64,000 nucleotides of DNA from a virus. Shown one piece after another: positions 7,287 through 61,763 of the stretch; positions within the stretch are counted from its first letter, which is position 1, and every line of letters starts with the position of its first letter. The position numbers and the translations under genes were made by a program. The stretch is from the IMG/VR virus record IMGVR_UViG_3300047312_000028, positions 112,326 through 176,325 of that record. One strand, given 5' to 3'. The notes under the pieces were generated by a model that saw only the letters and a program-made list of their open reading frames with translations, was not told the origin of the DNA and made no database searches.

Positions 7287-7296
7287 AGGAGAAGCT

Positions 7297-7914: not shown

Positions 7915-7915
7915 T

Positions 7916-31550: not shown

Positions 31551-32182
31551 TGAAACTACAACACATTCATGACTTGGTTGTGAAGGTGCCAGAGGGTAGT
31601 CTCACTCCCAAGCAGATCATTCAGCCATTGAGAAAAGCGTTCAAACCCTATCCTTGGATACGGTTTGAGAAAAGAATTATGTCTATTTCAAACGCAAAGG
31701 GTCTTGCTGATGGAATGCTTATCACTGGAAAGTTTGAGCATGATTGGGTTGATCGGCCAGTCTGCTTTGTGACACTGTGGTTTCACTCTGGCAAAGAAGA
31801 TAAGAGTATATGGTTCTCTGGTAAACTAAGAGATCGTATCTTGTTTGATATCTTTGCCACGATTGCTCATGAGCGCGTTCATATGTTGCAGGCGAAGAAA
31901 GCCAAAGCCTGCCCTCGAAACTTTCATGTGAATATAACGCATGATTGGATGTTGAAGCGCGATATTCAATATTACGGATCGAAGATTGAGATTGATGCGT
32001 TCGGTCTTACTTCCGTGCTTGAAGATCGATTCGGTATGTCCGGTGAAATCATAGAACGTTATAGAAAGCTATTCACACCTTATAGTCTTCTCTATAAGCG
32101 ATTCTTAAAGAAAAAGTATGAGTACAACTTGAAAACTCCTCACATAAATAGTTCATTATGCAACCATTCAAAACTCACATAA
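31550..32182 (+). CDS. zincin-like HExxH protein
   Basis: AHERVH..Q...YY...EIDAF. Confidence 0.6.
   Translation: MKLQHIHDLVVKVPEGSLTPKQIIQPLRKAFKPYPWIRFEKRIMSISNAKGLADGMLITGKFEHDWVDRPVCFVTLWFHSGKEDKSIWFSGKLRDRILFDIFATIAHERVHMLQAKKAKACPRNFHVNITHDWMLKRDIQYYGSKIEIDAFGLTSVLEDRFGMSGEIIERYRKLFTPYSLLYKRFLKKKYEYNLKTPHINSSLCNHSKLT
32143..32150 (+). promoter_or_regulatory. late-type promoter
   Basis: CATAAATA 7 nt before ATG 32158. Confidence 0.55.
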
Positions 32183-33375
32183 CAACAGAGAAGAATATAC
32201 ACCTAGAGCACATTGAAGACCAGGTGCTCAATCGTGGCGCCTATGGTGCGACAGAATCACTCAACTTCCTATTTGCGTTGCGTGATATGCTTGCCGGCCA
32301 TGCGACTGCACCAATCAATCTTACCACTAAGTGGGACGGAGCACCGGCAGTTGTATGCGGAGTCAATCCAGAAAACGATCAGTTCTTTGTTGGAACAAAA
32401 TCAGTGCTCAACAAAACACCAAAGTTGAACTATACTGAGAGAGATATTAACGTCAATCACCCTAACGATGAACTTAATCAGAAGTTGAAGGCCTGTCTTC
32501 GATATCTTCCTAAGCTCGGTATCAAAGGTATCTTGCAAGGGGATCTGATGTTCACGAAAGGTGATGTGAAGGATCAAACCATCGACGGCCGAGAGTATGT
32601 GACGTTCACACCCAACACACTCACCTATGCGTTTCAGAAGGGTACTACACTTGCTGAGAGGATCAAAGAGGCACAACTCGGTATCGTGTTTCATACATCA
32701 TATCACGGCACGAAGATGGATAACCTAATCGCGTCTTACAACGTCGATATCGGGTACTTGAATCACCCCAAAGAAGTCTGGTATCGTGATGCTAGTTATG
32801 TGGATGAAACAGGCACGGTCACATTCACGCAAGAAGAACTGACATACTTGAATACACTCTTGAATAGTGCAGTCAAGTCATTTTCGGCGATCAATGACAA
32901 GGTACTCAACCAGATTGCGCTGAACGGTATCTATCGTGACAACATAAAGATTTTCAACAACACAAAGGTCCGCGCTGGCGAATCAATCTTAGATACGACA
33001 CTATATACCAATCAGTTGATCCACTGGCTTGAAACTCGTATGACAGCAGCTATCGGTGAAGCGAAGTTACCAGAGACAAAACGCAAGCGTACACAAGAGC
33101 GAACCAACGTCCTAGGGTTCTTAAGAGCCCATGCTCCTGAACTCAGATCGATTTTTGACTTGCAGAATCAACTTGTCTATGCTAAAATGTTTATCTTAAA
33201 TAAGCTTCACCAAGTCAGCAACACACATACATTCCTACGAACAGAGACGGGATACAAAGCGACGAACCCAGAGGGGTTTGTGGCCGTCGATCATTTTGGC
33301 AATGCTGTTAAGCTTGTCGATAGACTCAGCTTTTCCCATGCGAACTTCACCGCCGCAAAGGATTGGTCAAAGTAA
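32158..33375 (+). CDS. DUF6267-like protein, RNA/DNA-ligase-type nucleotidyltransferase fold
   Basis: HLEH.ED, motif I KWDGAP, QGDLMF, EGFV, VKLVDR. Confidence 0.75.
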   Translation: MQPFKTHITTEKNIHLEHIEDQVLNRGAYGATESLNFLFALRDMLAGHATAPINLTTKWDGAPAVVCGVNPENDQFFVGTKSVLNKTPKLNYTERDINVNHPNDELNQKLKACLRYLPKLGIKGILQGDLMFTKGDVKDQTIDGREYVTFTPNTLTYAFQKGTTLAERIKEAQLGIVFHTSYHGTKMDNLIASYNVDIGYLNHPKEVWYRDASYVDETGTVTFTQEELTYLNTLLNSAVKSFSAINDKVLNQIALNGIYRDNIKIFNNTKVRAGESILDTTLYTNQLIHWLETRMTAAIGEAKLPETKRKRTQERTNVLGFLRAHAPELRSIFDLQNQLVYAKMFILNKLHQVSNTHTFLRTETGYKATNPEGFVAVDHFGNAVKLVDRLSFSHANFTAAKDWSK

Positions 33376-33391
33376 TAAAAATGGAGTGATT

Positions 33392-34273
33392 ATGAGCAAG
33401 CGTGATTTGGTAATCGGTGCAGTAACAGGCTACAAGTTCAATCAACTTCTCCCTTGGGTCAATAGTCTAGATCGATCAGGCTTTGAAGGTATCAAGGCCT
33501 TGATTATGTACAACACAGACTTTGACACTGTGCGCGAACTCAACAACCGCGGATACGCGACGATTCTTCTTGGTAAAGATGATACAAAAGGAAACTTCGT
33601 TTATCATAAACAAGACTTTGCCATTGTAGTCGAACGGTTCCTCCATTACTATCTCTTCCTTGGTAACAACGACAATGCTAACATCGTCCGAAATGTCATT
33701 GCAACCGATGTGAAGGATGTAATCTTCCAACATAACCCATCTACTTACCTCGATACACTAGAAGCCCGTAAGAAGAAGCTGGTAGCTTCCTCTGAAGCGA
33801 TTGCTTATGAACATGAGCCGTGGGGCGCCAACAATCTATTACAGTCATTTGGTATCGAGATGTACGAACGACACAAGTCCAATATCGTTGTAAACTGCGG
33901 AGTCATTGCAGGTGAATTTTCAACGTTCATGGGATTGTGTAAGACGATCTATTTGGCATGTGCTGGCACGGTGCAACATGTGCCTGGAGGTGGCGGTCCC
34001 GATCAAGCAGCATTGAACTTGATGATGGAGACTCCCGCCTATCAAGATATCACCGACTTTGCGACACATGAGTATCCTTGGGCTGCACAATTGGGTACGA
34101 CAATGGATCCCAATAAGATCAATGCGTATCTTCCCAACATTCACGAAGCATTGCCGGTCTTCAACCCAACTACAAATATGGTGGAAACGCCATCTGGTAT
34201 GCCGTATGCGATTGTACACCAGTGGGATCGTGTCCCTGAAGTCAAGCAAGCTGTGGAGAAACTTTATCTATGA
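33392..34273 (+). CDS. glycosyltransferase-like protein (GT-A)
   Basis: TDVKDVIFQ.NP, NCGVIAG, DQAALN, VHQWDR. Confidence 0.75.
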   Translation: MSKRDLVIGAVTGYKFNQLLPWVNSLDRSGFEGIKALIMYNTDFDTVRELNNRGYATILLGKDDTKGNFVYHKQDFAIVVERFLHYYLFLGNNDNANIVRNVIATDVKDVIFQHNPSTYLDTLEARKKKLVASSEAIAYEHEPWGANNLLQSFGIEMYERHKSNIVVNCGVIAGEFSTFMGLCKTIYLACAGTVQHVPGGGGPDQAALNLMMETPAYQDITDFATHEYPWAAQLGTTMDPNKINAYLPNIHEALPVFNPTTNMVETPSGMPYAIVHQWDRVPEVKQAVEKLYL

Positions 34274-35292
34274 GCACTGTAGAAGAATCCCCTGAGAATC
34301 GGAAAGTACCAGTCGTTCAAGAACCAGAACGACTGAGACGTATATGTTATGTGGTACATCGTTATGCGCCATATCCGGGTGGCTCTGAGAACTATGTACG
34401 CGACATGGCAGAAGAAACTGCTATGAGAGGTCACCATGTGGCGGTGTTCGCAGGTGAGCACATGGGTAATCAACGAGGCATTCGTGTGACTTCAGACCCA
34501 GCGATTCTGATGGAACGTTGGGATTTGATTGTCGTACATGGTGGTGATGTAGCGGTACAGAACTTCGTCTTGAACAATGCACACCGACTTGGTGGTCCTG
34601 TGCTCTATATGCTCATTATGCCCTCCCACTCTGTTGAATGCGTAGGAGCACTCCATAAAGCTGCATACATAGGATGCTCGACATATGCAGACTGGCGACA
34701 TGTAACATCATATAATGCTCAAAATCGTTCGGTCAGAATTCGTCATGGAATCAACCTTGACTCTTCTGTGGGCACTCCAGGCTTCCGTAAGAAGTACAAT
34801 ATTAAAACTAGGTACATGTTCTTATCATCTGGAGGATATTGGGCCAACAAAGCATTTAATGAATTGGTTGAGACCTTCAATAAGGTCAATCGCCATGATG
34901 TTACGTTAGTTCTAACTGGCTATGACAATCGATCAAACTTGATGCCCAAAGCGAGTGAATTTGTGAAACCGTTCTTGTTAGATGATCGTGGGGAGATGTT
35001 ATCGGCCCTTATGGATTCCGATCTATATATCCTCAATAGTCACAGTGAGGGGTTTGGATTGGTGTTGCTTGAATCGATGTTGAATCTAACCCCGTGGGTG
35101 GGGCGACACATTGCAGGCGCAGAACTCATGAGAGAATTTGGGAAGACATATACCACGCAAAATGAACTAGCTCGATATCTGAATGACTTTGTGGGGCAGA
35201 CTGCGGCGCATTTACTCGAATCACAGAAGTATGTTATGTCCACGCACCTTATTAGACATACGGTCTCTGATATCTTAAGGGTATTTAAGTGA
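34270..35292 (+). CDS. GT-B (GT4-like) glycosyltransferase
   Basis: P..GGSE, HGI, K...LV, S.SEGFGLVLLESM. Confidence 0.88.
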   Translation: MSTVEESPENRKVPVVQEPERLRRICYVVHRYAPYPGGSENYVRDMAEETAMRGHHVAVFAGEHMGNQRGIRVTSDPAILMERWDLIVVHGGDVAVQNFVLNNAHRLGGPVLYMLIMPSHSVECVGALHKAAYIGCSTYADWRHVTSYNAQNRSVRIRHGINLDSSVGTPGFRKKYNIKTRYMFLSSGGYWANKAFNELVETFNKVNRHDVTLVLTGYDNRSNLMPKASEFVKPFLLDDRGEMLSALMDSDLYILNSHSEGFGLVLLESMLNLTPWVGRHIAGAELMREFGKTYTTQNELARYLNDFVGQTAAHLLESQKYVMSTHLIRHTVSDILRVFK

Positions 35293-35915
35293 ACCTAACG
35301 TTTGGTGTCTTGACAGCATACGAAGATCACACACGGCTGAACGCGGTGATTCAGTCGATCAAAGATTTGAATGTACCAAACTCTGAGGTGATTGTTGCGG
35401 GGTCTTATAGTCCAAATAAGCTTCCTACAACAGGCGCCTTTGAAGGAGTTGGACATATTCTCACTGACGGTTGGATCACTCGTAAGAAGAACTTAATTGC
35501 CAATCTAGCCCTCGGTGAAGTGTTAGTGCTTGTTCATGACTATTATCTCTTTGATAAAGGGTGGTATCGATCATATGAGAAGTTTGGGTATGATTGGGAT
35601 ATTTGCAGCAATCCGCAGTTTCTACAGAATGGGCGGAGACATTTTACTGATTGGGTGGTGTGGGATTCCCCGACCTATCCAAGGTATCATTCGTTGTGTT
35701 ATGACGATTTGAGTCAAACTAAATATCAGTATATTTCAGGTGGTTATTTTCTTGTGAAGAGAGATTTCTTACAAGCGTACCCCCTTAACGAAGAGATGCA
35801 ACCTGGGTCACCAGAAGACGTTGAGTGGAGTCTACGAGTCAGAGACGTAGCAACAATCAAATGCAACCCGTGGGCAATCGTTCGCCACAATAAGAGGCAC
35901 CGTGACTGCAAATAA
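35289..35915 (+). CDS. GT2-like glycosyltransferase
   Basis: WITRKKN, HDY, EDVEWS.R; GTG start. Confidence 0.75.
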   Translation: MNLTFGVLTAYEDHTRLNAVIQSIKDLNVPNSEVIVAGSYSPNKLPTTGAFEGVGHILTDGWITRKKNLIANLALGEVLVLVHDYYLFDKGWYRSYEKFGYDWDICSNPQFLQNGRRHFTDWVVWDSPTYPRYHSLCYDDLSQTKYQYISGGYFLVKRDFLQAYPLNEEMQPGSPEDVEWSLRVRDVATIKCNPWAIVRHNKRHRDCK

Positions 35916-37275
35916 ACTTGTGATATTTGATTTAGATGGTGTATTAGTTAAGAGTCGAGAGATTCACTTTGAGGCGCTGAATAAGGCCTTAGCTGAAGTG
36001 CATCCTAATTGGGAGATCGGTTGGGAGGAACACCTCGCTAAGTATGATGGTCTCCCTACAACAAAGAAACTTCAATTACTCACGGAAGAGAAAGCATTTC
36101 CAGAACACTACTACGATCAAATTTGGAAAGCCAAACAAAAATATACAGTCGAACTCTATCAACAGATACAACCTAGTATCAAGCTGCAAGGACTATTAAA
36201 ACATTTAAAGGATTGTAATATCAGAATCGCCGTAGCATCTAATAGCATACGTGAGACCATGGAAACGGCGTTGATTCGTTTGGGTATAAGAAGTATGGTA
36301 GGATGCACAGTGTCTAATGAAGATGTGCAGTATCCTAAGCCGTATCCGGAAATGTACTGGAACTGTATGTCGTTCTTTAAGGCGCTACCAGAGAACACTG
36401 TGATTATCGAAGACTCTCATATCGGTAGGGAGGCTGCACTTGCAAGTAGAGCACATTTAGTTCCTGTGAGTGACCCTGAAGACCTCACATGGAAGACGAT
36501 CAGCCATACCATCGACATATTAAATGGTGTAGGCAAGACCAACGTGCCATGGCGCAATAAGAAGATGAATGTGGTCATTCCTATGGCAGGTCATGGTTCA
36601 CGCTTTGCACAAGCAGGCTACACATTCCCAAAGCCACTCATTGAAGTGAACGGCAAGCCGATGATTCAGCTTGTCGTAGAGAACCTAAACATCGACGCTC
36701 ACTACATTTTCATTGTGCAGAAAGAGCATCATGATAAGTACCAACTCAAGTATATGCTCAATCTGATTGCACCTGGTTGTGATATCGTACAAGTAGAAGG
36801 AGTAACAGAAGGCGCGGCATGCACCACGCTTCTTGCTTCGCACCTTTATGGTAATGGAGATCCTCTCTTGATTGCCAACTCCGATCAATTTATTAAATGG
36901 AACTCCAATGAATGTTTGTATGCGTTCACCGCAGACGGCATTGATGCTGGGTTGTTAACCTTTAAGTCGATACATCCTAAGTGGTCATTTGCTCGATTAG
37001 GACCTGATGGATTTGTTGCTGAAGTGGCAGAGAAGCGTCCTATCTCAGACTTAGCATCTGTGGGTATATACTACTGGAAGCAGGGGCTTGATTATGTGCT
37101 GTACGCAGATAGAATGCTCCGAAAAAACATTCGCGTCAACAATGAATTCTATGTGTGTCCTGTGCTCAACGAAGCAATCGCCGATGGGAAGAAAGTTCGC
37201 GTCAAGAGTGTGGAAGAGATGTGGGGTCTGGGTACACCTGAAGATTTGAAAACATATTTGGAGCATCATCCATGA
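35902..37275 (+). CDS. HAD phosphatase fused to BcbE-like sugar nucleotidyltransferase
   Basis: FDLDGVL, KPYPEMY, IEDS; IPMAGHGSRF..AGY..PKPLI, ANSDQ, EK, NNEFYV.P, GLGTPEDL. Confidence 0.88.
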   Translation: MTANKLVIFDLDGVLVKSREIHFEALNKALAEVHPNWEIGWEEHLAKYDGLPTTKKLQLLTEEKAFPEHYYDQIWKAKQKYTVELYQQIQPSIKLQGLLKHLKDCNIRIAVASNSIRETMETALIRLGIRSMVGCTVSNEDVQYPKPYPEMYWNCMSFFKALPENTVIIEDSHIGREAALASRAHLVPVSDPEDLTWKTISHTIDILNGVGKTNVPWRNKKMNVVIPMAGHGSRFAQAGYTFPKPLIEVNGKPMIQLVVENLNIDAHYIFIVQKEHHDKYQLKYMLNLIAPGCDIVQVEGVTEGAACTTLLASHLYGNGDPLLIANSDQFIKWNSNECLYAFTADGIDAGLLTFKSIHPKWSFARLGPDGFVAEVAEKRPISDLASVGIYYWKQGLDYVLYADRMLRKNIRVNNEFYVCPVLNEAIADGKKVRVKSVEEMWGLGTPEDLKTYLEHHP

Positions 37276-37802
37276 GTGTTATAGTAGAAGTAGGCGCCCA
37301 TTTAGGTGCTGAGACATTTAATTTTCTAGGCGATGCTGAGGCACTGGTCTATGCGTTTGAGCCAGAACAACGAAGCTTTGCAGAACTCTATCGTAAAGCA
37401 CAATCCTACCCACGACTCACGGTCCTTCCATTCGCTGTTGATATCGGGGACAATCAAGAACCATTGTTTCATAGAGAATCGGGATTCAGCACACTTGATC
37501 CTCCAGCATTCGGTTCGCAGAGTGCTCAATTTACGATGACATGGACCATTCGTCTAGACACGTTCATGACGCTCTATAACATCGAAAAGATTGATTATCT
37601 ACGAATCGACGCTCCACTACGGGAAGAGATGTGCTTGGAGAGTATCGACACCCGTATAAAAGACGTACAGAGAGGACGCATTCGACGCTACGGCCCTCGA
37701 TCCGTGGTTCCTGCATGGTTACTTGACCACGGCTTCCATCTTGAACTAGACACAACTTCTGATAATGTGACAGATCCTGATATTCGATTCTGGAGGACAT
37801 AA
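37272..37802 (+). CDS. FkbM-like methyltransferase
   Basis: EVGAH.G, YAFEP, IRLDTF, IDYLRID. Confidence 0.78.
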   Translation: MSVIVEVGAHLGAETFNFLGDAEALVYAFEPEQRSFAELYRKAQSYPRLTVLPFAVDIGDNQEPLFHRESGFSTLDPPAFGSQSAQFTMTWTIRLDTFMTLYNIEKIDYLRIDAPLREEMCLESIDTRIKDVQRGRIRRYGPRSVVPAWLLDHGFHLELDTTSDNVTDPDIRFWRT

Positions 37803-38581
37803 TGAATACGTGGATTTTGACATTTAACAGGCCAGCAGCACTTAATAGACAAATTTCTTCATTCAAAACATGGACAGGTGTGAATATTTTCACCAACCAC
37901 CCCTATGTGCAACTCAATCAGGAACACCATGATTCTCACTCCGCAGGGAATTTGCCAGTACTTTATAATTCACTCTCAGACCAAGAAGCAACTTCCTATT
38001 GTGCTAGAAGTTGGAACAACATATTCTTAAAGGGGTTTAAGTATGTCGATGAAATGATCTGTGTTCAAGATGATACCTTTATCACTGACCCAGAACGATT
38101 CAAGGACCTGATTCTCAGCAACAAAGACAAGTATGATTTGATATGGGGACCTGCTGGTGACCAGTTCTTCTACCTCAAAAAGAAAGTCCTACAGACGGTA
38201 GGATGGTTCGATGAACGCTACCTTGGTTGCTACTGTGGAGATGCTGATTGGCTCAAACGTGTGTGGAATAACTACGACCGTAACCGTTTGTCAATCTCCG
38301 AATCCCACGACTGGGGATTCAAACACAACAACATTGGGTTGGAGAATATCATCCCTACCCATATCAATTCTAAGCGAATTGACGCCACATATATAAATCA
38401 GCATGAGGAGATAGAACAGGCTGTAGGCGCCAAAACGAATCGTGTTCTTGAGCACTCTCAGTTATTCTATGAGGAGAAGTGGGGGCACCCACTCAATGGC
38501 AATCCATTGAATTCACGAGTGGAACCTCTTATCGAAGAGATTGATTGGTATCCGTGGTTCACAGAGAAGTATCTAAAGTAA
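37802..38581 (+). CDS. GT2-like glycosyltransferase
   Basis: TFNRP, ARSWN, QDD, VGWFDERY...D.DW. Confidence 0.75.
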   Translation: MNTWILTFNRPAALNRQISSFKTWTGVNIFTNHPYVQLNQEHHDSHSAGNLPVLYNSLSDQEATSYCARSWNNIFLKGFKYVDEMICVQDDTFITDPERFKDLILSNKDKYDLIWGPAGDQFFYLKKKVLQTVGWFDERYLGCYCGDADWLKRVWNNYDRNRLSISESHDWGFKHNNIGLENIIPTHINSKRIDATYINQHEEIEQAVGAKTNRVLEHSQLFYEEKWGHPLNGNPLNSRVEPLIEEIDWYPWFTEKYLK

Positions 38582-38603
38582 TTTATTTTAACTAGGAGGT
38601 ATC

Positions 38604-39059
38604 ATGAAAAAGTTACTAAGTTTTATTGTGTTGGCATTTATGTTGGTGTTTGGATCAACATCCTATGCTGATACCACAACAAGTGCACCTATCAATATTG
38701 ACGGAAACGCATTCTATAATGCCACTTTCACACCGGCCGGTGGAACTTGTGTACTCTCTAACCAGATTCATATTGACGGTCTCAACCACGTCATGATCTA
38801 CTCTAAGGTTGATAATAACGCATTCGCTGAGGCTGGTGGTTATATGATCGTTGAATTCAGCCCAAATGGAGTGGTCTGGTATGATCTACAAGGAACGGGT
38901 TGGTCTTTTGCGTCAGGTTGGTTGGTGCCATTCCCACCTGCCAATGGGGTATATAATTACACATTTTCCTATCCTACAGGTTCTGTTGTGGCTACAGATA
39001 TTAGATTTAAGGTGTGTTTCGCTGTTGTTAATTTGACAGTCTCGGTATTTGGGAGGTAA
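38604..39059 (+). CDS. secreted beta-rich protein with signal peptide
   Basis: MKK-hydrophobic-SYA/D signal; AGGAGG SD. Confidence 0.65.
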   Translation: MKKLLSFIVLAFMLVFGSTSYADTTTSAPINIDGNAFYNATFTPAGGTCVLSNQIHIDGLNHVMIYSKVDNNAFAEAGGYMIVEFSPNGVVWYDLQGTGWSFASGWLVPFPPANGVYNYTFSYPTGSVVATDIRFKVCFAVVNLTVSVFGR

Positions 39060-39060
39060 T

Positions 39061-39741
39061 ATGTCAGAACATTTGAAGCCTTTTTGGAACGAAGAAGCCT
39101 CCCGATGGTCCTTGACAAACAAGAACCCTCTTGTCGGTTGGTATGATGAACACATGAATGACACTCAAGAGGGGGAGATATTATTCCGAGGCATTCCAAC
39201 GAAGGTAGGCTCGCTGGCCTTAGAGTTTGGGTGTGGGCCGGGACGTAACTTCATTAAGTTCCGTGATTGGTTCAGCCGTATTGATGGAGTAGATATCTCT
39301 GATGAAATATTAAGAAAACTTCCTCTCAACTTAGCAGAGTCGAATACGCCAGTCCCAAATACATGGTTGATCGATGGTCACTCTCTACCCGAGGTGCCAT
39401 CCAACACCTATGATGTGGTATTCTCTATTATCTGTATGCAGCATATCTCTTGCCGATCCTGGCGCTTGGAGTTGTACAGAGAATTTATGAGAGTACTCAA
39501 GCCAGGTGGCTTCTTCACATTTCAGATGGGATTCGGCCCAGGCCATCCTATCTCACGGGATTACTTCCATGAATACGGGCCCGAAGACTTGATACATCGT
39601 GATACGAGGGTAGAAGATCCTGATGCACTTAAGAAGGATCTGATGGACCAAGGATTTGAGGGATTTGATTACAAACTTACTGTACCTTGTCATGACCAGC
39701 ATCCATCGTGGATTTGGGCGCGAGTGCAGAAGCCTTTATAA
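39061..39741 (+). CDS. class I SAM-dependent methyltransferase (paralog 1)
   Basis: LEFGCGPGR, GVDIS, YDVVFS, RVLKPGG. Confidence 0.88.
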   Translation: MSEHLKPFWNEEASRWSLTNKNPLVGWYDEHMNDTQEGEILFRGIPTKVGSLALEFGCGPGRNFIKFRDWFSRIDGVDISDEILRKLPLNLAESNTPVPNTWLIDGHSLPEVPSNTYDVVFSIICMQHISCRSWRLELYREFMRVLKPGGFFTFQMGFGPGHPISRDYFHEYGPEDLIHRDTRVEDPDALKKDLMDQGFEGFDYKLTVPCHDQHPSWIWARVQKPL

Positions 39742-39757
39742 TATTTAAGAGGTTATT

Positions 39758-40504
39758 ATGAGCGTTGGAGAAAGCAGCTTTCTACAGAGACAACAGAGAT
39801 TTTGGGGCGACATTGCGAAGACCTGGAGTCTTCAGAATAAGAATCCTATCGTCGGTTGGTACAATGAGCACCAGAACTTTCCAGAGTACGATACGGTCCT
39901 GTTCAGAGATATTGCTATCACAGGGCAAGAGGTCGTACTTGAGTATGGTTGTGGGCCTGCACGAAACATCATTCGATGGTATGGAAAGTTCAAGCGTATT
40001 GATGGTGTAGACATTGCGCCTGAGTGCATCGAAAAAGCCAAGATCAACCTTGCCGCTTCGCGTCTTCCAGAACCCAATCTCTGGTCGAACGATGGTCGCT
40101 CACTTAATATGATCGACTCAGCAGGAAAAGATCCTAATAACCCAGGCCCAAGTGAGTGGCAGGGTTATGATATTGTGTTCATGGTGATTAGTCACCAGCA
40201 TATCACGTCCCGCGCTGTGCGTTTGCATTTGTATAGAGAATTCTTACGTGTCTTGAAGCCGGGCGGACACTTATGTTTCCAAACAGGCTTCGGTCCTGGA
40301 CATCCACGTTCTGTTGATTACTTTGCCGAAGACTTTAACACTGAAGCAGACTTCGTGGATAAAGACGTGCGAGTAGAGAACGTAGAGATTATCAAGGCCG
40401 ACTTGGTCAACCAGGGATTCACTTGGCTCGATCATGCAATCACGAGGACCTGTAAGGATGAACACCCAGCTTGGTTGTGGGTGCGTTGTCAAAAACCATT
40501 ATGA
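39758..40504 (+). CDS. class I SAM-dependent methyltransferase (paralog 2)
   Basis: LEYGCGPAR, GVDIA, RVLKPGG; collinear with paralog 1. Confidence 0.88.
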   Translation: MSVGESSFLQRQQRFWGDIAKTWSLQNKNPIVGWYNEHQNFPEYDTVLFRDIAITGQEVVLEYGCGPARNIIRWYGKFKRIDGVDIAPECIEKAKINLAASRLPEPNLWSNDGRSLNMIDSAGKDPNNPGPSEWQGYDIVFMVISHQHITSRAVRLHLYREFLRVLKPGGHLCFQTGFGPGHPRSVDYFAEDFNTEADFVDKDVRVENVEIIKADLVNQGFTWLDHAITRTCKDEHPAWLWVRCQKPL

Positions 40505-40974
40505 TCTATATTGCGCACAGAGGTAATATCAAAGGTTCGGATCCTCAACGAGAAAATGCGCCTGGATACATCGACGAGGCTTTGAACCTGGGGTATAAAG
40601 CTGAGGTTGATCTGTGGGCAGAGGGTGACCAATTGTGGCTCGGCCACGATGCTCCCCTTTACCCAATCTACATTGATTTCATTCGATGTAGACAACGAGA
40701 ACTCTTTGTTCACTGCAAGAATACAGATGCACTAGATGCCGTAAGATCAGGTAAAGTTGATGCCCATTACTTCTTTCACCAACATGATGACTACACATTG
40801 ACCAGTGAAGGCCTTGTATGGGTCTATCCTGGTCGCATGATGTGTGATAAGTCAATCCTCGTCCTTCCTGAGTCGTGGCTTAACAACGATCAGTATGTTG
40901 ATTACATAGAGCGATGGCAAGGTAAGATCGTTGGTGTGTGTTCAGATTTTGTTGACACACTCAAGACTTTATAA
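40501..40974 (+). CDS. glycerophosphodiester phosphodiesterase-like (PLC-like) small protein
   Basis: IAHRGN, EN, EVD, LGHD, HCKN, GVCSD. Confidence 0.8.
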   Translation: MIYIAHRGNIKGSDPQRENAPGYIDEALNLGYKAEVDLWAEGDQLWLGHDAPLYPIYIDFIRCRQRELFVHCKNTDALDAVRSGKVDAHYFFHQHDDYTLTSEGLVWVYPGRMMCDKSILVLPESWLNNDQYVDYIERWQGKIVGVCSDFVDTLKTL

Positions 40975-40977
40975 ATA
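40970..40977 (+). promoter_or_regulatory. T4-type late promoter
   Basis: TATAAATA upstream of the 41014 ORF. Confidence 0.8.
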
Positions 40978-41013
40978 CACCACAATCTAATATTCCTGTA
41001 GAGGGGATAGTCC

Positions 41014-43440
41014 TTGTATCTACCAAAAGACGGCCTTAATATCTCCAGAGAACTTCTCCCCCAGGTCGCCAACGCGGACCTCCCCGATTACTTCAATTGG
41101 CTTAAAACTAACAAGCAAATCTCCTGCATTACTACCGAATTGCCTGTTTCTTCGCTTCATCCATCACAAGGTGACTTCAATGAAGAGAAGATTGCCGAAT
41201 TGATGACGCATAGACTGGAAGAACTCAAAAAGCCAATCATTGTGTCTTCTGACTTCTTCGTGCTCGATGGTCACCATCGTTGGCTAGCGTTGCTCAATAT
41301 GGACCAGAACGACACTATACCGGTAGTCATGACGAATGTGAAGATCATGGATCTGCTTGCAGCCACGAAAGAGTATCCTAAGTCATTCACTAGAACTGTG
41401 GTCGAATCATTCAAGAGTATGATCGGTAGCAAACATGCGGTTATGTCTTATGCCCGCATGAATCCTCCAACGAAGGGTCATGAGAAGCTGATTCATACGG
41501 TGCATCATGTAGCGAATGAGTTTGCCGCTCACCATGAGATCGTATTAAGTCATAAACACGACAACACAAAGAACCCATTGAGCCAGGAGACCAAGCACAG
41601 CTACCTGAAGCAGATGTTTCCAGATACAAATTTTGTGAACGCAACAGATGAACATCCAAGTATATTTCACCACGCGACACGTTTGAATCGCGCAGGATAC
41701 AAGCATTTACATGTGGTCGCTGGTGATGATCGTGCCAAAGAGTTTGAGGAGAAATTACATAAATACAACGGGCACTATGATGACGCAGGCAACGGCTATA
41801 AATTCGACTCGATAACTCTTCACTCCGCTGGTTCGAGAAACCCAGAAGGAAAAGGACTTGAGGGGTTATCGGGTACGAAATTGCGTGATTATGCAGCAAA
41901 TGGGAACTATCCAGAATTTGCAAAAGGTGTGCCAGGATCAACAGAAGTCGCCAAAAGACTCTACAACGATGTGCGACAAGGATTAAAACCGATGAACGAG
42001 AGTGCAGAACTTCTAGAAGAAGGCGTCCATGACGCTGCTATTTTCAAGGCCGTGTTTCTTGCTGGTGCACCAGGCTCCGGTAAAGACTATGTTCTTAAGC
42101 ATGCCTTAGATGGCCACGGTCTTACAGAGATCAGTTCAGATCCGATGTTGACCCATTTGATCGATAAGAACCAAATGGATCGAAAGATGCCAGAGCATGA
42201 GCAAGAGAAGCGTGGCCTGTTGAGAAAGAAAGCTCAATCACTCACCGACCTGCGCCAGAAGCTTGCATTACATGGTCGCAACGGTATCATAGTCAACGGT
42301 TCAGGTGCTAGTTTTGACCAGGTTAAGAAAATCAAAGGTATGCTTGATGAACTAGGCTATGCCTGCAAGATGATCTTTGTAGATACCAGCGACAATGTAA
42401 GCCGCAATCGCAATATCGAACGTGGTCAGAAGGGCGGTCGCACTGTTCCTGAGAAAGCACGAGCAGAGAAGTGGAGAGCCGCGCAGGATTCTCGTGTCAA
42501 TTTCTCTAAACTCTTTGGTTCTGAGAACTATCACGAATTCAACAACGACGAAGACCTCCGCAATAACACTGACGGTGAAGTACATAAGCAGAAGACGAAA
42601 GAACTTGAAGACCTCTTCAAGACAGTCAAGAAGTTTACGCAGCAACCACCGGAGCATCCATCTGCACAAGAATGGGTTCATAAGAATCTTGGTAAGCTTG
42701 CAAAGCAACCACTTGGCAACAAGACTCAGCAAAAGAAGCAAATCCCGGCTTCACCCGATGCACAAGCGACAGAAGACGCCCGCAAACTTGGGCTTCAGTA
42801 CTATGGGTATGGTCGCTATGGTAAAGCAGGACGTGTCACGCATTTCTCATTGAACGGCAAACTGGTAGAGAAGAAGAAAGCATTGACTCCACCTAAGTCG
42901 TTAGAACCAGCAAAAACAACAAAGAAGCTTGATGAAGCTTTTGAAGAACTATTTACGGAGGATAATGATGAACGTATACGATTGGAAAATCACATGGCTT
43001 CTTCTTTTGTGGTGGGAGGATTGGAAGTGGTTCCTTTACATGTACAATACCTCTCCGACACCATGCGAGGACACAGAGAAAGAGTTGATAAAAACAGTCA
43101 AGACAGATTCAGTAACCTCCGTGAATACGTTTGTGAAACCAGCAGGAGTGAAGTTCGAGTGGGAACCGACAAAAGTGACACCAAAGCGCAAGGTAACCAA
43201 GAAGAGAAACCCCAAGAAACAACTTCTTCTTTCCGAGGGCTCATGGAACGATTGGGGTCTAGAAGAACAGAAGTCAAAAAAGAAATCCTCAAAGAAGGCG
43301 AGCCGACGCAAGACGTAGGAGGTGACGGTGGTCCTATTCTTGGTACTGGAACCGCCGAGACTGTTGATAGTACAAACGGTGGCATTGCCACGAACGGTCC
43401 AAAGAAGACATTGAAGAAGTTCAAGGGAGATATCAAGTAA
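41014..43440 (+). CDS. polyvalent virion-type protein: ParB/Srx-like + HIGH-family cytidylyl/adenylyltransferase + zeta-toxin/Pnk-like P-loop kinase
   Basis: L.PSQ..LDGHHRW; RMNPPTKGH..VAGDDR..SGTKLR; FLAGAPGSGK..RN..R; TTG start after GAGGGG. Confidence 0.8.
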   Translation: MYLPKDGLNISRELLPQVANADLPDYFNWLKTNKQISCITTELPVSSLHPSQGDFNEEKIAELMTHRLEELKKPIIVSSDFFVLDGHHRWLALLNMDQNDTIPVVMTNVKIMDLLAATKEYPKSFTRTVVESFKSMIGSKHAVMSYARMNPPTKGHEKLIHTVHHVANEFAAHHEIVLSHKHDNTKNPLSQETKHSYLKQMFPDTNFVNATDEHPSIFHHATRLNRAGYKHLHVVAGDDRAKEFEEKLHKYNGHYDDAGNGYKFDSITLHSAGSRNPEGKGLEGLSGTKLRDYAANGNYPEFAKGVPGSTEVAKRLYNDVRQGLKPMNESAELLEEGVHDAAIFKAVFLAGAPGSGKDYVLKHALDGHGLTEISSDPMLTHLIDKNQMDRKMPEHEQEKRGLLRKKAQSLTDLRQKLALHGRNGIIVNGSGASFDQVKKIKGMLDELGYACKMIFVDTSDNVSRNRNIERGQKGGRTVPEKARAEKWRAAQDSRVNFSKLFGSENYHEFNNDEDLRNNTDGEVHKQKTKELEDLFKTVKKFTQQPPEHPSAQEWVHKNLGKLAKQPLGNKTQQKKQIPASPDAQATEDARKLGLQYYGYGRYGKAGRVTHFSLNGKLVEKKKALTPPKSLEPAKTTKKLDEAFEELFTEDNDERIRLENHMASSFVVGGLEVVPLHVQYLSDTMRGHRERVDKNSQDRFSNLREYVCETSRSEVRVGTDKSDTKAQGNQEEKPQETTSSFRGLMERLGSRRTEVKKEILKEGEPTQDVGGDGGPILGTGTAETVDSTNGGIATNGPKKTLKKFKGDIK
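42965..43318 (+). CDS. nested out-of-frame ORF (Trp-rich N-terminus, Lys-rich C-terminus)
   Basis: GGAGG (42957-42961) before ATGATG; 117 codons open in another frame inside the 41014 ORF. Confidence 0.45.
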   Translation: MMNVYDWKITWLLLLWWEDWKWFLYMYNTSPTPCEDTEKELIKTVKTDSVTSVNTFVKPAGVKFEWEPTKVTPKRKVTKKRNPKKQLLLSEGSWNDWGLEEQKSKKKSSKKASRRKT

Positions 43441-45281
43441 TGGATACCTCAACGAAGTGGACGCCAGCCGTAAAGACTGCCCATCATTATCAGGGGCAGA
43501 TCAACGGTAAGACATATGTGGTACCTCATGCGTCTTTGAATATCTATCACAAAGGTGGATATGCAGAGCCGATGCGTCATTCGATTGTCACTTCGTTGCA
43601 TCATGTGCAGCATAACAATCCAGACTTGACGCCTGAAGAACATACACGAGTGCATGAACATATCAAGGCAATTCATGGGGGACAAGCGCCTGCCAAGCTG
43701 AAGGAAGAAATCAAAATCACCACGACGCCTGCAACACGAAAAGAGTTGAAGGCGGCACGACCAATGCGTAAAGGAGCCGCGGAGAGATTTATGAAAAGAT
43801 TTGCTGCCAAAACAGAACTAGAAAAAAAAGAACAACTCAGTGAATCAAAACAAAAGCTCTACAATCCCGATGGGTCGTTTCGAGCCGGCGTCAAAGTGAC
43901 CGTCGATGGAAAGCACGGAGAGATCAGTCATGTTCATCACAGTCAAGAACACCCAACCTATCCACACTCCTATAAAGTCACTGACTTGGGCGCGAATGAT
44001 CCCTACAAACAAACTCGTTTACGCGGCAACACATTCATTTCACATAGAGACATAAAGCCATTAGAAGAACGAGCATTAACTGCCGCCGAGACGGACAAGA
44101 AAGAGGATATGGTGCATTCCATGAAGAAGAACCTTCAGAGCTTCAAAGATCGATACGGCGCGGACGCCAAGAGTGTGATGTACGCGACGGCGACGAAGAA
44201 AGCAAAAGAGTTGGCAGAACGAAGTGAGAACTTCATGTTTACCCATCACCCTGGCGACCCAGAGAGCGAAGATAAGTTGAAACGCGCTAAACAAATGCTA
44301 CAGGGTACCGGTAAGAAGCTGCACGTTCGCGCCCGTTTAGGAAAAGACAATCCTAACGCCCATGAATATAAGAACAACACGCGCCATGGGCATCCTGCTT
44401 CAAATAGATATCAGACGATCTTGAAGCAAGACGCCAAGCATTTTGACGTATACAAGCGTCCAAGCATTCATGAAGAATCGCATGGTAGTAACTTCCTTGA
44501 TAAGGACCGTACAGACGCCAAGATCAATCGACGTAAAAGTTTTGCGGCTCATGCGAAAGAGAAGAGAGAGAATGAAGCCCATAAGGATAATCATCATGAG
44601 GGTCCTTTGAATGAAAGTCTCTCTGCCTTTATGAAGACCTATAAGAAAAACGAAGCACGAAACGAACACCAAGCTAATATGGTGCATCTTGCAAAACACT
44701 TCGGTAATGAAGCCGATCAAAAAGAAGCACAGTTTTACTATGATGAACAGAAGAAGCACGGAGAGAATAGACACTCCGAAGCTCAATCTAAGTTACACAG
44801 AAAGTTATGGCCGAGAGCAGTAGCCAAACACACCTATAGCAATTACAACGAAGAGGTAGACGCCATGAGTCAACTTAACGAAACATTACATGCGTACCAG
44901 GTACATCACAACGGCAAGCATATCGACACTGTATTCTATGGTAGTCACGAAGACCCAGCCGATGTGAAGAAGTCGTTGGTCAACCATGATGGTTATGACC
45001 CAGGCATCACAATCAAGAAAGAAAAGTTCCATCACCTTCCAGTGAGAAAGAACCTGAAGGAAGAAACACCATCCAAGCTTCCATTGATTCGATCTGTGTT
45101 GAAAGAAATGTCCACCCGTAAACACTTTCAACAAGTGGCCGATTTGATTAAGGCGAACCCAGATGCGAAGAAGCGCCAGGAGTTTGCGAATCATCATGCT
45201 ACAGTGTTTGCGGCGCAGAACCCACGTTTCAACCATGAGTTATTTCATAAGGCCGCGGGCACCACATATACGAAATCATAA
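43440..45281 (+). CDS. putative internal-head polyprotein of small His/Lys-rich modules
   Basis: about 10 modules separated by LKEE, LSES, LEER, LAER, IHEE, LNES, LNET, LKEE, LKEM. Confidence 0.65.
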   Translation: MDTSTKWTPAVKTAHHYQGQINGKTYVVPHASLNIYHKGGYAEPMRHSIVTSLHHVQHNNPDLTPEEHTRVHEHIKAIHGGQAPAKLKEEIKITTTPATRKELKAARPMRKGAAERFMKRFAAKTELEKKEQLSESKQKLYNPDGSFRAGVKVTVDGKHGEISHVHHSQEHPTYPHSYKVTDLGANDPYKQTRLRGNTFISHRDIKPLEERALTAAETDKKEDMVHSMKKNLQSFKDRYGADAKSVMYATATKKAKELAERSENFMFTHHPGDPESEDKLKRAKQMLQGTGKKLHVRARLGKDNPNAHEYKNNTRHGHPASNRYQTILKQDAKHFDVYKRPSIHEESHGSNFLDKDRTDAKINRRKSFAAHAKEKRENEAHKDNHHEGPLNESLSAFMKTYKKNEARNEHQANMVHLAKHFGNEADQKEAQFYYDEQKKHGENRHSEAQSKLHRKLWPRAVAKHTYSNYNEEVDAMSQLNETLHAYQVHHNGKHIDTVFYGSHEDPADVKKSLVNHDGYDPGITIKKEKFHHLPVRKNLKEETPSKLPLIRSVLKEMSTRKHFQQVADLIKANPDAKKRQEFANHHATVFAAQNPRFNHELFHKAAGTTYTKS

Positions 45282-45289
45282 GGACTGAT

Positions 45290-46585
45290 ATGAAGAAGTT
45301 CACTGAGTTAAAAGAAAACACACCGACAGTGCATACCTACAGAGGGTACTCTATCAAGGAGTATGAGGGAAAGTTCCATGTGCAGAAGACGCCTGGGACT
45401 ACTCTATCCCATCATGCCAGCAAGAAGGATGCCAAGAGTCGTATCGATTACTACCACAGGCTCCCAGATAAGAGCATGTCGCATGGTGATATGGTCTCGT
45501 TGGTCAATGAAACAAAGTGGCATGTTAAAGAAGAGAAAGAAGTACCGAAGAGCACACTACCTAGCGACGAACCAAAGAAGAATGAGGAGTCTATCAAGAA
45601 CATATCTGCGCATGATAAAAGGACTCTATCACTCATGAAGTCAATGTTTGGTCGCCGCCCTATGAAGGAAGAGACAGAGCGAGAACGTAAGTCTCATGCT
45701 GTGCGTATGGCACCTGCACCTACTAATGACCAATTAGAAAAGCGGGATGAGTCAGATGATCTTATCAAGAAGAATTTTGAGACTGCACAAAAGAAAACGG
45801 CTGATGCACTTGCCTCTAAGGAAATCACGAAAGTCATGAAAGAGTCAGTCGGTAGTGTACCGGGTGGCGGTGTGCTCGACGAAAGCGGACCTGATACATA
45901 CAAAGTCGGAGATCATGTCATTGCAAAGATCGGTCCTCACGCTGGTCAGGTGCATAGAGTCATTCATGTGCATCCTACAGGGCATCTGAATATTACACCA
46001 ATCGGGCACAGCAACCGATATAAGTTAGGGGCAGCGAAAGCGAACCCAGAAGATGTGACGCGACAGCTTGAAGAAGCGAAGAAGAAACCTAAAAAGAAGT
46101 TCGTACCAGATCCAAAGATTTGGAAAAAACTGCCCGTACTATCAAAGCTCCTAGGTGTCAAATTAGAAGAATCGATCATATCACGCACGACAGTCCAAGA
46201 GGTCTTTCAGGCAGCGAAAGCGAAGAAGAAAGAAGCGGGTAAAGACAAGAAAGAGATCAAGACTGACCCAAAGAAAGATCCAAAGAAAGAGAAAGTGTCA
46301 GCACAAGACTTTGACAAACCGAAGGAGTTTCAGGACCCTGGGCAAGCTGAACCAGATCAGACCGAAGTCCAGGCAAAACCCCCTCAGTTCGGCGGCAAAG
46401 ACGGTGACGATGCAAAGCCCAAGGAGAAGAAGAACAACACTCCAGAGCCAGAAAAGAAGGGCACAAAGCTTGTAGTCAAGGGCCCTGGTGCTGATGACAA
46501 GTTCCAGACCGATCCTATCGTAACCCCTGTGACAACGTTGCCGGACACGGCATCCGCACGAACCGGTAGCCAAGGGGTCAGGTAA
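45290..46585 (+). CDS. putative internal-head polyprotein with capsid-targeting-like N-terminus and KOW module
   Basis: MKKFTELKE; VNET, VKEE, MKEE, MKES, LDES, LEEA, LEES; KVGDHV..KIGPHAG. Confidence 0.65.
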   Translation: MKKFTELKENTPTVHTYRGYSIKEYEGKFHVQKTPGTTLSHHASKKDAKSRIDYYHRLPDKSMSHGDMVSLVNETKWHVKEEKEVPKSTLPSDEPKKNEESIKNISAHDKRTLSLMKSMFGRRPMKEETERERKSHAVRMAPAPTNDQLEKRDESDDLIKKNFETAQKKTADALASKEITKVMKESVGSVPGGGVLDESGPDTYKVGDHVIAKIGPHAGQVHRVIHVHPTGHLNITPIGHSNRYKLGAAKANPEDVTRQLEEAKKKPKKKFVPDPKIWKKLPVLSKLLGVKLEESIISRTTVQEVFQAAKAKKKEAGKDKKEIKTDPKKDPKKEKVSAQDFDKPKEFQDPGQAEPDQTEVQAKPPQFGGKDGDDAKPKEKKNNTPEPEKKGTKLVVKGPGADDKFQTDPIVTPVTTLPDTASARTGSQGVR

Positions 46586-46587
46586 CA

Positions 46588-46595
46588 TATAAATA
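46588..46595 (+). promoter_or_regulatory. T4-type late promoter
   Basis: TATAAATA. Confidence 0.8.
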
Positions 46596-46608: not shown

Positions 46609-47121
46609 ATGAGAGATCCAAATATGATTATTTACTGCGATAGTGACGGTGTTATCTGTGACTTCTACGGTGGTGCCGAGAAGCTCCTGGGGCATCCTTG
46701 GGGTGAACGGCACGGGGTAAGACAAAAAGCACTCGAACAAGGTTTACTACTCAACAAGCACGAAACTTTCTGGTCGACACTCCCAGAGATACCAGATTGG
46801 AAAGTTTTGTGGAGCTTTATTGAAAAGTACGATCCTCATATTCTGACAGCAGTTCCGGCTTGGGATCATGATTTTGCTGTAGTTGAAGAAGGTAAGTGGG
46901 AGTGGTATCAGAAACACATTCCTTTGCTTCCGAGAGACCGCTTTCATGTTGTGTATCGTGACGAAAAGGCACAATTCGCACGAAATGGTGACGTGCCTAA
47001 CATTCTGATTGATGACCATCCAGGTAACATAAAAGACTTTGAAGCGGCCGGCGGTATTGGAATCTATCATGTCAGTGCGAAAGTTACGATTTTGAAACTT
47101 AAGGAACTCGGGTATCACTAA
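46609..47121 (+). CDS. HAD-family 5'(3')-deoxyribonucleotidase
   Basis: DSDGVICDF, ILT, K, LIDD...NI..F..AGG.GI. Confidence 0.85.
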   Translation: MRDPNMIIYCDSDGVICDFYGGAEKLLGHPWGERHGVRQKALEQGLLLNKHETFWSTLPEIPDWKVLWSFIEKYDPHILTAVPAWDHDFAVVEEGKWEWYQKHIPLLPRDRFHVVYRDEKAQFARNGDVPNILIDDHPGNIKDFEAAGGIGIYHVSAKVTILKLKELGYH

Positions 47122-47713: not shown

Positions 47714-48148
47714 ATGAAAGCATTCGATTTGTTTTTGAAAGAACATGCGATGGGGGAGGAGCCTCTTCTCCCCTCTACGCAAGGCGAACTGGGTGCTCTA
47801 GATTTACATGATGAACAAGTCAGAGATGGCTTGAACATGGAGCTTCTAGATATCACAGATAGTCCTGAACGTATGCTTCCTGTGATTACTTTCGATAGAG
47901 TGCGCGAGGTACTTGGAGCCGCTGGCTACTGGATCCCTTCCGCCACTATGAACTCTGCACTCTTTGATGAAGAGATAGGGGATGAAGTATTCGTATTGTC
48001 TCCACCTACGAAGGATGCCGATCAACCAGTGAAAGCAGATTGTTATTTGTATTTTGCATTTGCAGAGACCGAAACAGGTGATTGGGATGTATTGGCTGAA
48101 GTAGTCAACTCCTTGGAGCTAGAAGATATTCTTTCAGATCAACAGTAA
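47714..48148 (+). CDS. acidic protein with capsid-targeting-like N-terminus
   Basis: MKAFDLFLKE; late operon. Confidence 0.55.
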   Translation: MKAFDLFLKEHAMGEEPLLPSTQGELGALDLHDEQVRDGLNMELLDITDSPERMLPVITFDRVREVLGAAGYWIPSATMNSALFDEEIGDEVFVLSPPTKDADQPVKADCYLYFAFAETETGDWDVLAEVVNSLELEDILSDQQ

Positions 48149-60179: not shown

Positions 60180-60974
60180 ATGATTATCTCAAACATACCG
60201 CACAAGATGTTTAAGTTCCCTGTGGGCGAAATGCAGGTGAATGTAGAGTATGAACGCCCCTATGATAGTGCTGTTCATGCTGTCAATGTGACGTTTACAT
60301 TCACAAAGAACGAAGACATTATCGAACTCATGTTGTTTGTTGATGCGTGTAAGCGCCAGGGAATGGTCTTAGGTACGCTCACGATGCCGTATGTGCCGTT
60401 TAGTCGCCAGGATCGTAAGAATGCTATTGGAGAATCATTCAGTCTTGCTGTCTTCTGCAATCTCATTAACTCACTCAACTTCTTTCAAGTTGTTGTGCAT
60501 GATCCGCATTCTGATGTGACACCCGCCCTCTTGAATAACTGCTTCGTGCGCGAACAACATACGATGTTGAAGCCTATCCTTGATAAGAACTTAGGCGCTC
60601 AACCATTCTATCTTGTCAGCCCTGATGCTGGCGCACTCAAAAAGATATACAAACTGGCAAAGATGTTTGATAACAACAGGATGATTGGTGTGATTGAGTG
60701 CGGAAAGAAGCGCGATACATCGACGGGTGATATCACAGGCACAGTCATATACAGAACACAACCACTCGTGCCTCAAGTGCCATGTGTGATGATCGATGAT
60801 ATTTGTGATGGTGGGCGAACATTCGTTGAACTTGGTAAAGCACTCAAAGCAAAAGGCGCAGAGAGAGTCCACCTCTATGTGACACACGGATTCTTCACGA
60901 AGGGTCTTGATGTGTTCAATGGAATTGTTGATGTAGTCGATGCAGCACACTTTTATCCGAGCTTCAAATCATGA
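60180..60974 (+). CDS. prs: ribose-phosphate pyrophosphokinase-like protein (Prs; Adps-like)
   Basis: FP.GE, MPY.PFSRQDR, DPHS, SPDAGA, IDDICDGGRTF, VTHG.F. Confidence 0.9.
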   Translation: MIISNIPHKMFKFPVGEMQVNVEYERPYDSAVHAVNVTFTFTKNEDIIELMLFVDACKRQGMVLGTLTMPYVPFSRQDRKNAIGESFSLAVFCNLINSLNFFQVVVHDPHSDVTPALLNNCFVREQHTMLKPILDKNLGAQPFYLVSPDAGALKKIYKLAKMFDNNRMIGVIECGKKRDTSTGDITGTVIYRTQPLVPQVPCVMIDDICDGGRTFVELGKALKAKGAERVHLYVTHGFFTKGLDVFNGIVDVVDAAHFYPSFKS

Positions 60975-61444
60975 CTATCACCTTTGTTGAATTTGTCACA
61001 TATAAAACAAAACTAGATGAACGTCTAGCCATTGCAAGTGAACGATGGCGTGAATTGCTGAACAGAAATAACAGAAGGAGCATTCATCCTTCAGTTGTTT
61101 TCACTGACATTTACTATAATCTAGAGCCCGTAACCCAATTACTCAAAGAACTTGGAGTGACAGGCGCCACGGCATACATGAGTGGTATAGATAGATGGGG
61201 CGATGGAGAAAGTATAGAGGTGCCCCTTGATCTTGTGCTGCCGTTATTTGAATTCACAGATGAGGATCCCTATAGCACTGTGAAACTTCTACACTATCGA
61301 TCAATGCTTGATGAACTCGACCAACGGCTACTTACAGAAAAGAAAATACAAGAAGAAAAAGATGAAGTAGCTAGAAAAGAGAGTGATTTGAGAGTATTTG
61401 AATCATTGTTAAAGAAATATCCAGAACTCAGGAATAACATATGA
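60971..61444 (+). CDS. hypothetical protein
   Basis: ATGA coupling. Confidence 0.55.
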   Translation: MTITFVEFVTYKTKLDERLAIASERWRELLNRNNRRSIHPSVVFTDIYYNLEPVTQLLKELGVTGATAYMSGIDRWGDGESIEVPLDLVLPLFEFTDEDPYSTVKLLHYRSMLDELDQRLLTEKKIQEEKDEVARKESDLRVFESLLKKYPELRNNI

Positions 61445-61749: not shown

Positions 61750-61763
61750 CATAGGAGATTGAC

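Follow-up and report, generated by a model that had tools for sequence, protein, structure and literature searches.

The open reading frame (ORF) at positions 41014–43440 of a 64,000-nucleotide stretch of viral DNA (the window) raises the question of why a T4-like phage should link three catalytic domains within one late protein of 808 amino acids (aa). The window represents positions 112,326 to 176,325, i.e., the final 64 kb, of the complete 176,325-bp IMG/VR virus record IMGVR_UViG_3300047312_000028, the genome of a T4-like myovirus with genes for SbcCD, DNA polymerase, a gp41-type helicase, primase, RNR and a NAMPT-like protein. The answer favored here is that the ORF probably encodes a late-expressed cargo polyprotein which is packaged into the phage head and cleaved there. 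It would be built into the scaffolding core of the prohead, like the internal proteins (IPs) and Alt of phage T4, and a gp21-type protease would cut it after E131, E329/E336, E641 and E761 to yield separate enzymes. The freed enzymes would remain inside the head and be injected along with the DNA.

All motifs listed in the original prediction were found in the translation of the ORF, namely DGHHRW (aa 85–90), NPPTKGH (150–156), SGTKLR (286–291), GAPGSGK (351–357) and LGLQYYGYGRY (593–603). Its proposal of three catalytic domains plus a small module is borne out by motifs, profiles and predicted structure: a ParB/Srx domain is followed by a HIGH-type nucleotidyltransferase of the PPAT/NMNAT type (CT domain), a P-loop kinase of the Zeta/AAA_33 clade, a small beta module and a disordered tail. 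Structure prediction, which had been suggested alongside that proposal, was carried out with AlphaFold using a 40-sequence alignment and yielded four folded units (aa 1–129, 141–325, 345–565 and 584–623). Values of the predicted local distance difference test (pLDDT) fell below 50 precisely at two junctions (130–136 and 326–338) and from residue 646 to the C-terminus. Furthermore, the catalytic residues, whose degeneration in alignments would have spoken against the proposal, show little or no variation among 40 homologues.

The ParB/Srx-fold domain (aa 1–129; 41014–41400, on the plus strand like all features of this gene and its operon) was recognized strongly by fold, with phage ParB/Srx models in BFVD as Foldseek matches (E 3e-12, TM 0.85), and weakly by sequence (Pfam ParBc_2, E 0.01; TIGR00180, E 0.002; a weak PHROGs ParB match). 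The nucleotide-binding motif of the superfamily, of the D-G-x-H-R type, is present as DGHHR and conserved in the homologues. For the CT domain (aa 139–325; 41428–41988), PHROGs cytidyltransferase families matched aa 133–331 (E 3e-56; second family 1e-37), and motifs as well as fold are those of HIGH-type nucleotidyltransferases, the TxGH and SxTKxR motifs being invariant in the family. The kinase domain (aa 339–565; 42028–42708) was assigned by Pfam above cut-off at aa 345–493 (Zeta_toxin, 41.1 bits, cut-off 22.3; AAA_33, 40.3 bits, cut-off 27), and Walker A, the Asp after strand 2 and the Arg-rich lid of the Zeta_toxin/AAA_33 families are invariant in the homologues. A megablast search with the gene found nothing among 50,697 phage records, a whole-protein profile against PDB sequences gave marginal matches only, and a cluster look-up returned no informative names.

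Regarding expression, the T4-type late promoter that had been predicted at 40970 could be confirmed. The motif TATAAATA (40970–40977) is located 37 nt upstream of the start, and in three related contigs the homologous gene likewise has the late-promoter motif 29–41 nt ahead of it. Genome-wide, 34 ATAAATA sites were counted, about 21 of which are intergenic, lie 6–37 nt before genes and are concentrated in the structural block at 58–109 kb that includes the prohead protease gene; from this placement it follows that the phage uses T4-type late promoters. Translation starts at a TTG codon 7 nt 3' of the Shine-Dalgarno sequence GAGGGG (41001–41016), and GTAGAGGG also precedes the homologous gene in the three related contigs. 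The TTG start is considered sound because the alignment to relatives begins at residues 1–4, and an internal start at Met327 was dropped since it is not conserved in the family.

Evidence for packaging originates from the N-termini of related proteins. The capsid-targeting sequence (tag) of T4 needs residues 4 and 7 for targeting and residues 8 and 10 for processing, and gp21 cuts after L/I-X-E (PMC9026906). T4 IPIII and IPII (NC_000866) begin with M-K-T-Y-Q-E-F-I-A-E/A, and a T4-type tag was defined by aromatic residues at positions 4 and 7, an aliphatic residue at 8 and Glu at 10. Stand-alone CT homologues mostly open with a T4-like tag, e.g., M-K-S-F-K-E-F-I-T-E; the loose pattern fits 27 out of 86, against a background of one among the 254 ORFs of this genome. 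Fusions lacking ParB carry a nine-residue N-terminal variant in which the two aromatic residues, the aliphatic one and Glu are spaced identically; this variant fits 65 of 119 fusions and none of the 254 ORFs. Among cultured phages, Syn9 gp184, S-SM2 gp161, S-CREM2 gp154 and S-SZBM1 gp140 bear the tag at the N-terminus. In the window protein, the segment P-K-S-F-T-R-T-V-V-E/S-F (aa 122–133; 41377–41412) aligns to the tags of ParB-less members, and aa 122–131 keep the equivalents of tag positions 4, 8 and 10. We infer from this alignment that the ParB/CT junction may descend from an N-terminal capsid-targeting sequence that became internal when the ParB domain was fused to it.

A regular-expression search for tag-like N-termini among the ORFs of the genome returned one clear case, a 144-aa ORF at 47714–48148 of the window that starts with M-K-A-F-D-L-F-L-K-E and is the only background ORF fitting the pattern. 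In relatives, the equivalent position is occupied by ORFs of similar size with DUF7207, the likeness being one of position and size only.

Homologues of two domains were detected in virions of other phages. S-CREM2 gp154, to which the window CT domain is 34% identical (E 1e-26), was found in purified virions with three peptides, and its authors stated that such enzymes are often detected in cyanophage virion proteomes, warning of possible carry-over (PMC10665884). The S-SZBM1 CT protein (gp140) is the only enzyme among 30 virion proteins; gp139, encoded directly downstream, was likewise present, with an exponentially modified protein abundance index (emPAI) near that of residual prohead core proteins (PMC9146016). 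Moreover, stand-alone ParB-like homologues of Ackermannviridae are labeled 'unknown structural protein' (Dickeya phage JA15) or 'virion-associated' (Marzo, by homology to a ViI protein). Such labels trace to electrospray ionization tandem mass spectrometry of LIMEstone1 virions, with counterparts in ViI (PMC3296691), and based on size and position the ParB-like homologue probably corresponds to LIMEstone1 ORF102.

The ORF opens a conserved late operon, whose further members point in the same direction. Two translationally coupled genes follow (43440–46585; individually 43440–45281 and 45290–46585), encoding Lys/Glu/His-rich proteins of 613 and 431 aa. No Pfam match was obtained for the two proteins, and no promoter or terminator above chance was detected inside the operon block, the next late promoter being located at 46588. 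These partners appear internal-protein-like. The second begins with M-K-K-F-T-E-L-K-E, and any tag on these two window ORFs is weak at most. T4-tag-like peptides are more evident at the N-termini of the counterparts in related contigs, one of which contains DUF5661. The virion protein gp139 of S-SZBM1 occupies the same position.

A protease suited to the proposed cleavage is encoded in the genome, namely a gp21-type prohead protease (Peptidase_S77, PF03420, 108.6 bits) at genome positions 105354–105815. The density of [LI]xE[AGS] motifs peaks in the protease gene and the adjoining genes upstream of the capsid region. A protease of this family is also encoded by S-CREM2. Within the polyprotein, five hydrophobic-x-Glu motifs in predicted linkers of low pLDDT are 85–100% conserved amid otherwise variable sequence. 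These are V-V-E-S at the ParB/CT junction (20/22 sequences), M-N-E/S (38/38) and L-E-E/G (40/40) in linker 2 (aa 326–338; 41989–42027; pLDDT below 50), L-D-E/A (34/40) at the start of the disordered region (aa 639–642; 42928–42939) and L-K-E/G (30/34) ahead of the C-terminal tail. Of the junction sites listed originally, VVE/S, MNE/S, LEE/G and LDE/A were thus recovered as conserved linker motifs, and FEE was not conserved. The L-D-E/A site is followed by a disordered spacer (aa 646–758; 42949–43287; pLDDT 30–39) differing in length and sequence across the family. The L-K-E/G site (aa 759–762) and the conserved tail together span 43288–43437; the tail has a basic end, K-K-x-L-x-x-F-K, and E761, G773, G790, K797 and K798 are each at least 90% conserved.

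Several observations weigh against packaging and cleavage. The N-terminus of the window protein itself carries no targeting tag, and the internal relic has Thr instead of an aromatic residue at the equivalent of targeting position 7. The mass-spectrometric detections in cyanophages are of low abundance, and all detections concern homologues without the full three-domain architecture in other phages. The number of cleavage-type motifs in the 808-aa protein does not exceed that in shuffled sequences (p about 0.2). With respect to the P3 residue, Met occurs at one site and Val at the first, the latter not being the canonical Leu/Ile. Furthermore, several hydrophobic-x-Glu triplets inside folded domains are equally conserved. 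Since motif number is not enriched, the argument for cleavage is built on position and conservation, and conservation is suggestive only, because the triplets of the folded domains share it. The claim of head packaging made at the outset is retained in part: the tag on the CT family, the gp21-type protease and the detection of CT and ParB-like homologues in other virions speak for it, indirectly but in agreement with one another, and the tagless N-terminus of the protein speaks against it.

Among known systems, the tag-directed cargo of T4, i.e., IPI, IPII, IPIII and Alt, is the closest. Common features are late expression, a family tag of 9–10 residues in which all four functional positions recur, the presence of a gp21-type protease and cleavage after hydrophobic-x-Glu, which is predicted in the present case; Alt is likewise an enzyme and is trimmed at both ends (PMC9026906). 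In contrast to these single proteins, the putative window cargo strings three enzymes together and has internal sites, its tag lies internally behind ParB/Srx, and its packaging is predicted. The kind of enzymes, their arrangement as a polyprotein with sites inside and the internalized tag would set the window member apart from known cargo. The cyanophage CT proteins S-CREM2 gp154, S-SZBM1 gp140 and Syn9 gp184 share the homologous CT domain, the position between helicase and primase and the late operon, and the Syn9 protein additionally has the small L-G-L...G-R-Y module; unlike the window protein, they are devoid of kinase and ParB, and their tag is still N-terminal. The cyanophage virion papers report detection and make no mention of a tag. 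Within Creative Commons-licensed PMC and bioRxiv texts, only a T4 review contains both 'capsid targeting sequence' and 'cyanophage', and the link is not discussed there.

Polyvalent proteins, in which the original prediction had seen a precedent, resemble the family in combining unrelated effector-type domains variably, in featuring ParB/Srx and in their predicted delivery with the DNA (Iyer 2017, PMC5512222). Their described repertoire (MPTase, ART, DdrB-like ParB and others) includes ParB, but HIGH nucleotidyltransferases and P-loop kinases are not mentioned (PMC5512222). Moreover, the window protein contains no MPTase or other autoprotease, and release would depend on the head protease.

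More than 460 metagenomic proteins match the window protein. The constant core of the family consists of CT, kinase, small module, variable spacer and conserved tail; ParB is present in approximately half of the sequences, and one member combines ParB and kinase without CT. Foldseek searches against viral models revealed many CT-plus-AAA fusions. The partners of CT vary polyvalent-like between kinase, NT5C deoxyribonucleotidase, ParB and DUF6267, as fusions or neighboring genes. Cyanophage CT proteins occur without the kinase, and in the Pelagibacter phage HTVC008M kinase (220 aa) and CT protein (596 aa) are encoded by separate adjacent genes in reversed order compared to the fusion. The HTVC008M CT protein (6648–8438), located behind the kinase gene, starts with M-K-T-L-K-E-L-L and has a C-terminal DUF5824 domain.

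Genes for the so-called 'cytidylyltransferase' are widespread among marine and freshwater T4-like phages; their function is unexplained, as is the occurrence of the protein in virion proteomes. A T4-type capsid tag together with protease-punctuated fusions would provide a mechanistic reason for these detections and would extend the internal-protein principle of T4 to metabolic-type enzymes in environmentally dominant phages. The role of packaged nucleotide enzymes at entry would also become experimentally approachable in cultured phages such as Syn9, S-CREM2, S-SZBM1 and HTVC008M. As a wider and decidedly tentative proposal, aquatic T4-like phages may deliver a capsid enzyme set comprising the transferase, a PNK/PSTK-like kinase, ParB/Srx and possibly DUF6267. 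The set would be loaded by tags, separated by the protease and active within the first seconds of infection on RNA/tRNA of host or phage or on a nucleotide cofactor, serving counter-defense or takeover without phage gene expression.

In order to narrow down the substrate, both enzyme domains were compared with known structures. The CT domain ties between PPAT (Z 14.3, root-mean-square deviation 2.8, 148 aa) and NMNAT (NadM, Z 13.8; NMNAT range 13–13.8) in these model-based VIA searches. Folded alone (pLDDT 79), the kinase was closest to Kti12 (Z 12.6), PSTK (12.3) and the Pnkp kinase (12.1), with NMP kinases and dephospho-CoA kinase at about 10.5; the model leans towards RNA-acting kinases (Kti12/PSTK/Pnkp). 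Two candidate chemistries can be formulated: (a) a small phosphorylated metabolite may be the target, with kinase and nucleotidyltransferase acting in succession, much like NadR or CoA synthase, or (b) RNA/tRNA or DNA ends may be processed together with a ligase-like DUF6267 partner.

Following candidate (b), the protein may belong to a set healing and sealing nucleic-acid ends, in which the kinase acts on 5'-OH ends of RNA/tRNA or DNA and DUF6267 seals them, a reading to which a rather low probability is attached. The structural neighbors of the kinase favor it, but the Z margin over NMP kinases is just 1.5–2. DUF6267 contains KxDG, EGFV and VKLV motifs, is encoded close to the CT or kinase gene in HTVC008M, where it lies two genes ahead of the kinase, and in S-SZBM1, where it immediately precedes CT, and is fused to CT in other viral proteins of approximately 760 aa, which were the only addition from the protein atlas. 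It may accordingly be described as a conserved, ligase-like partner of CT and kinase; the ligase assignment is motif-based, a search against PDB sequences retrieved no relative, and DUF6267 is not among the S-SZBM1 virion proteins. In favor of this reading, the best PDB sequence-profile match of CT is MJ0951/UPF0348 (E 6e-6), followed by PPAT, with only two nucleotide-binding motifs aligned in the former. We take UPF0348 to be the TmcAL family; membership of CT was rejected at family level, since Pfam HIGH_NTase1 (PF05636) gave no match at E up to 10, which counts against this reading. To our knowledge, no role of PPAT/NMNAT-type transferases in RNA repair is known, and this likewise argues against it. 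T4 Pnk with Rnl and bacterial Pnkp/Hen1 are comparable in two respects, a P-loop kinase of one structural clade and the presence of a ligase-like partner; in contrast, the window protein lacks a phosphatase domain, and those systems have no HIGH transferase and are not packaged.

The DUF6267 protein of the window (32158–33375, 405 aa) shows the ligase-type motifs KWDG, EGFV and VKLV. Its gene has a late promoter, CATAAATA, 8 nt upstream, and the product has a tag-like N-terminus.

Alternatively, the protein may act as an intact multidomain enzyme in which the Glu motifs are structural or occur by chance and no cleavage takes place, which is considered unlikely. The chance-level motif count, the like triplets conserved within folded domains and the Val at P3 of the first site, all noted above, are expected for such an enzyme. 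Retention of all five linker motifs where the flanking sequence varies is not, nor are the homology of one linker motif to the processing site of the N-terminal tag and the existence of the domains as separate genes elsewhere. The cleaved cargo polyprotein is still preferred.

Following candidate (a), the fusion could represent a NadR-like NAD+ salvage enzyme (NR kinase plus NMN adenylyltransferase) countering NAD+-depleting defenses, as in NARP3; this is judged improbable. Two-domain Foldseek matches included NadR structures (6gyf, 1lw7, 8x7f; E about 1e-5) as well as ATP sulfurylase/APS kinase, and NadM and archaeal NMNAT reached Z 13–13.8. As in NadR and NARP3 Bas30_86, the nucleotidyltransferase precedes the P-loop kinase and a domain of nucleic-acid-binding type stands in front; a phage NadR-like enzyme has been validated (PMC13464706), and CT is the sole HIGH-type transferase of the genome. 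On the other hand, PPAT scores as well as NMNAT, and cyanophages retain CT without the kinase. Searches of the complete genome for Nudix, PnuC (PF04973) and a second HIGH-type transferase gave no match, and AAA_28 (PF13521) matched another gene rather than this kinase, whose segment lacks it among its Pfam matches. NadR/NARP3 membership was rejected for want of a PnuC partner and because the kinase is not of the AAA_28 type. Furthermore, the Prs-like and NAMPT-like pair of this genome fits NARP1, which needs no NMNAT. A role of CT as the missing NMNAT for NAMPT was dropped, as the literature shows that NARP1 pairs of this kind manage without one.

The Prs-like (264 aa) and NAMPT-like (485 aa) genes are located at 60180–63221 of the window and as a pair fit NARP1 (Adps + Namat), not NARP2. 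Outside the window, at genome positions 109411–109830, a gene for a small kinase of the AAA_28 type, which scored 35 bits and exceeded the cut-off, lies at the end of the structural block.

Least probable, and set aside here, is a cytoplasmic, unpackaged late enzyme of the adjacent glycan island, whose kinase would phosphorylate a sugar or alcohol and whose CT domain would make an NDP-derivative for glycosyltransferases: the gene directly follows glycosyltransferases, a HAD-NTP_transferase fusion and methyltransferases, another sugar cluster occupies the same place in a distant relative, and activated sugars are normally made by a kinase and a nucleotidyltransferase, but the gene has its own late promoter, HTVC008M and S-SZBM1 retain CT, kinase and DUF6267 genes without a glycan island, the family bears capsid tags and is found in virions, and the CT fold is PPAT/NMNAT-like and not that of a sugar-1-phosphate transferase.

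The glycan-type island itself (33392–40974) extends between the DUF6267 gene and the polyprotein gene and encodes a GT4 glycosyltransferase, the HAD-NTP_transferase fusion, FkbM and class I methyltransferases and a GDPD-like ORF. The latter was tried as the counterpart of a 170-aa HTVC008M gene and rejected; it has no PDB relative either.

Two further elements of the family deserve mention. The small module of the window protein (aa 584–623; 42763–42882) consists of a helix and four strands, L-G-L-x-Y-Y-G-x-G-R-Y ... G-K-L-V-E, and was folded in both models; G593, L594, G600, G603 and L617 are invariant in the 40 homologues. It follows the kinase in the window protein and is located directly after the N-terminal tag in Syn9 gp184 (locus positions 155–334) and S-SM2 gp161 (locus positions 80–259). 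The L-G-L...G-R-Y...G-K-L module appears to be mobile, and its role is possibly head retention. Downstream of the operon, an NT5C 5'(3')-deoxyribonucleotidase gene (46609–47121) has its own TATAAATA promoter 14 nt upstream, and in about 20 metagenomic proteins NT5C is fused to the same CT domain with a tag-like N-terminus in front.

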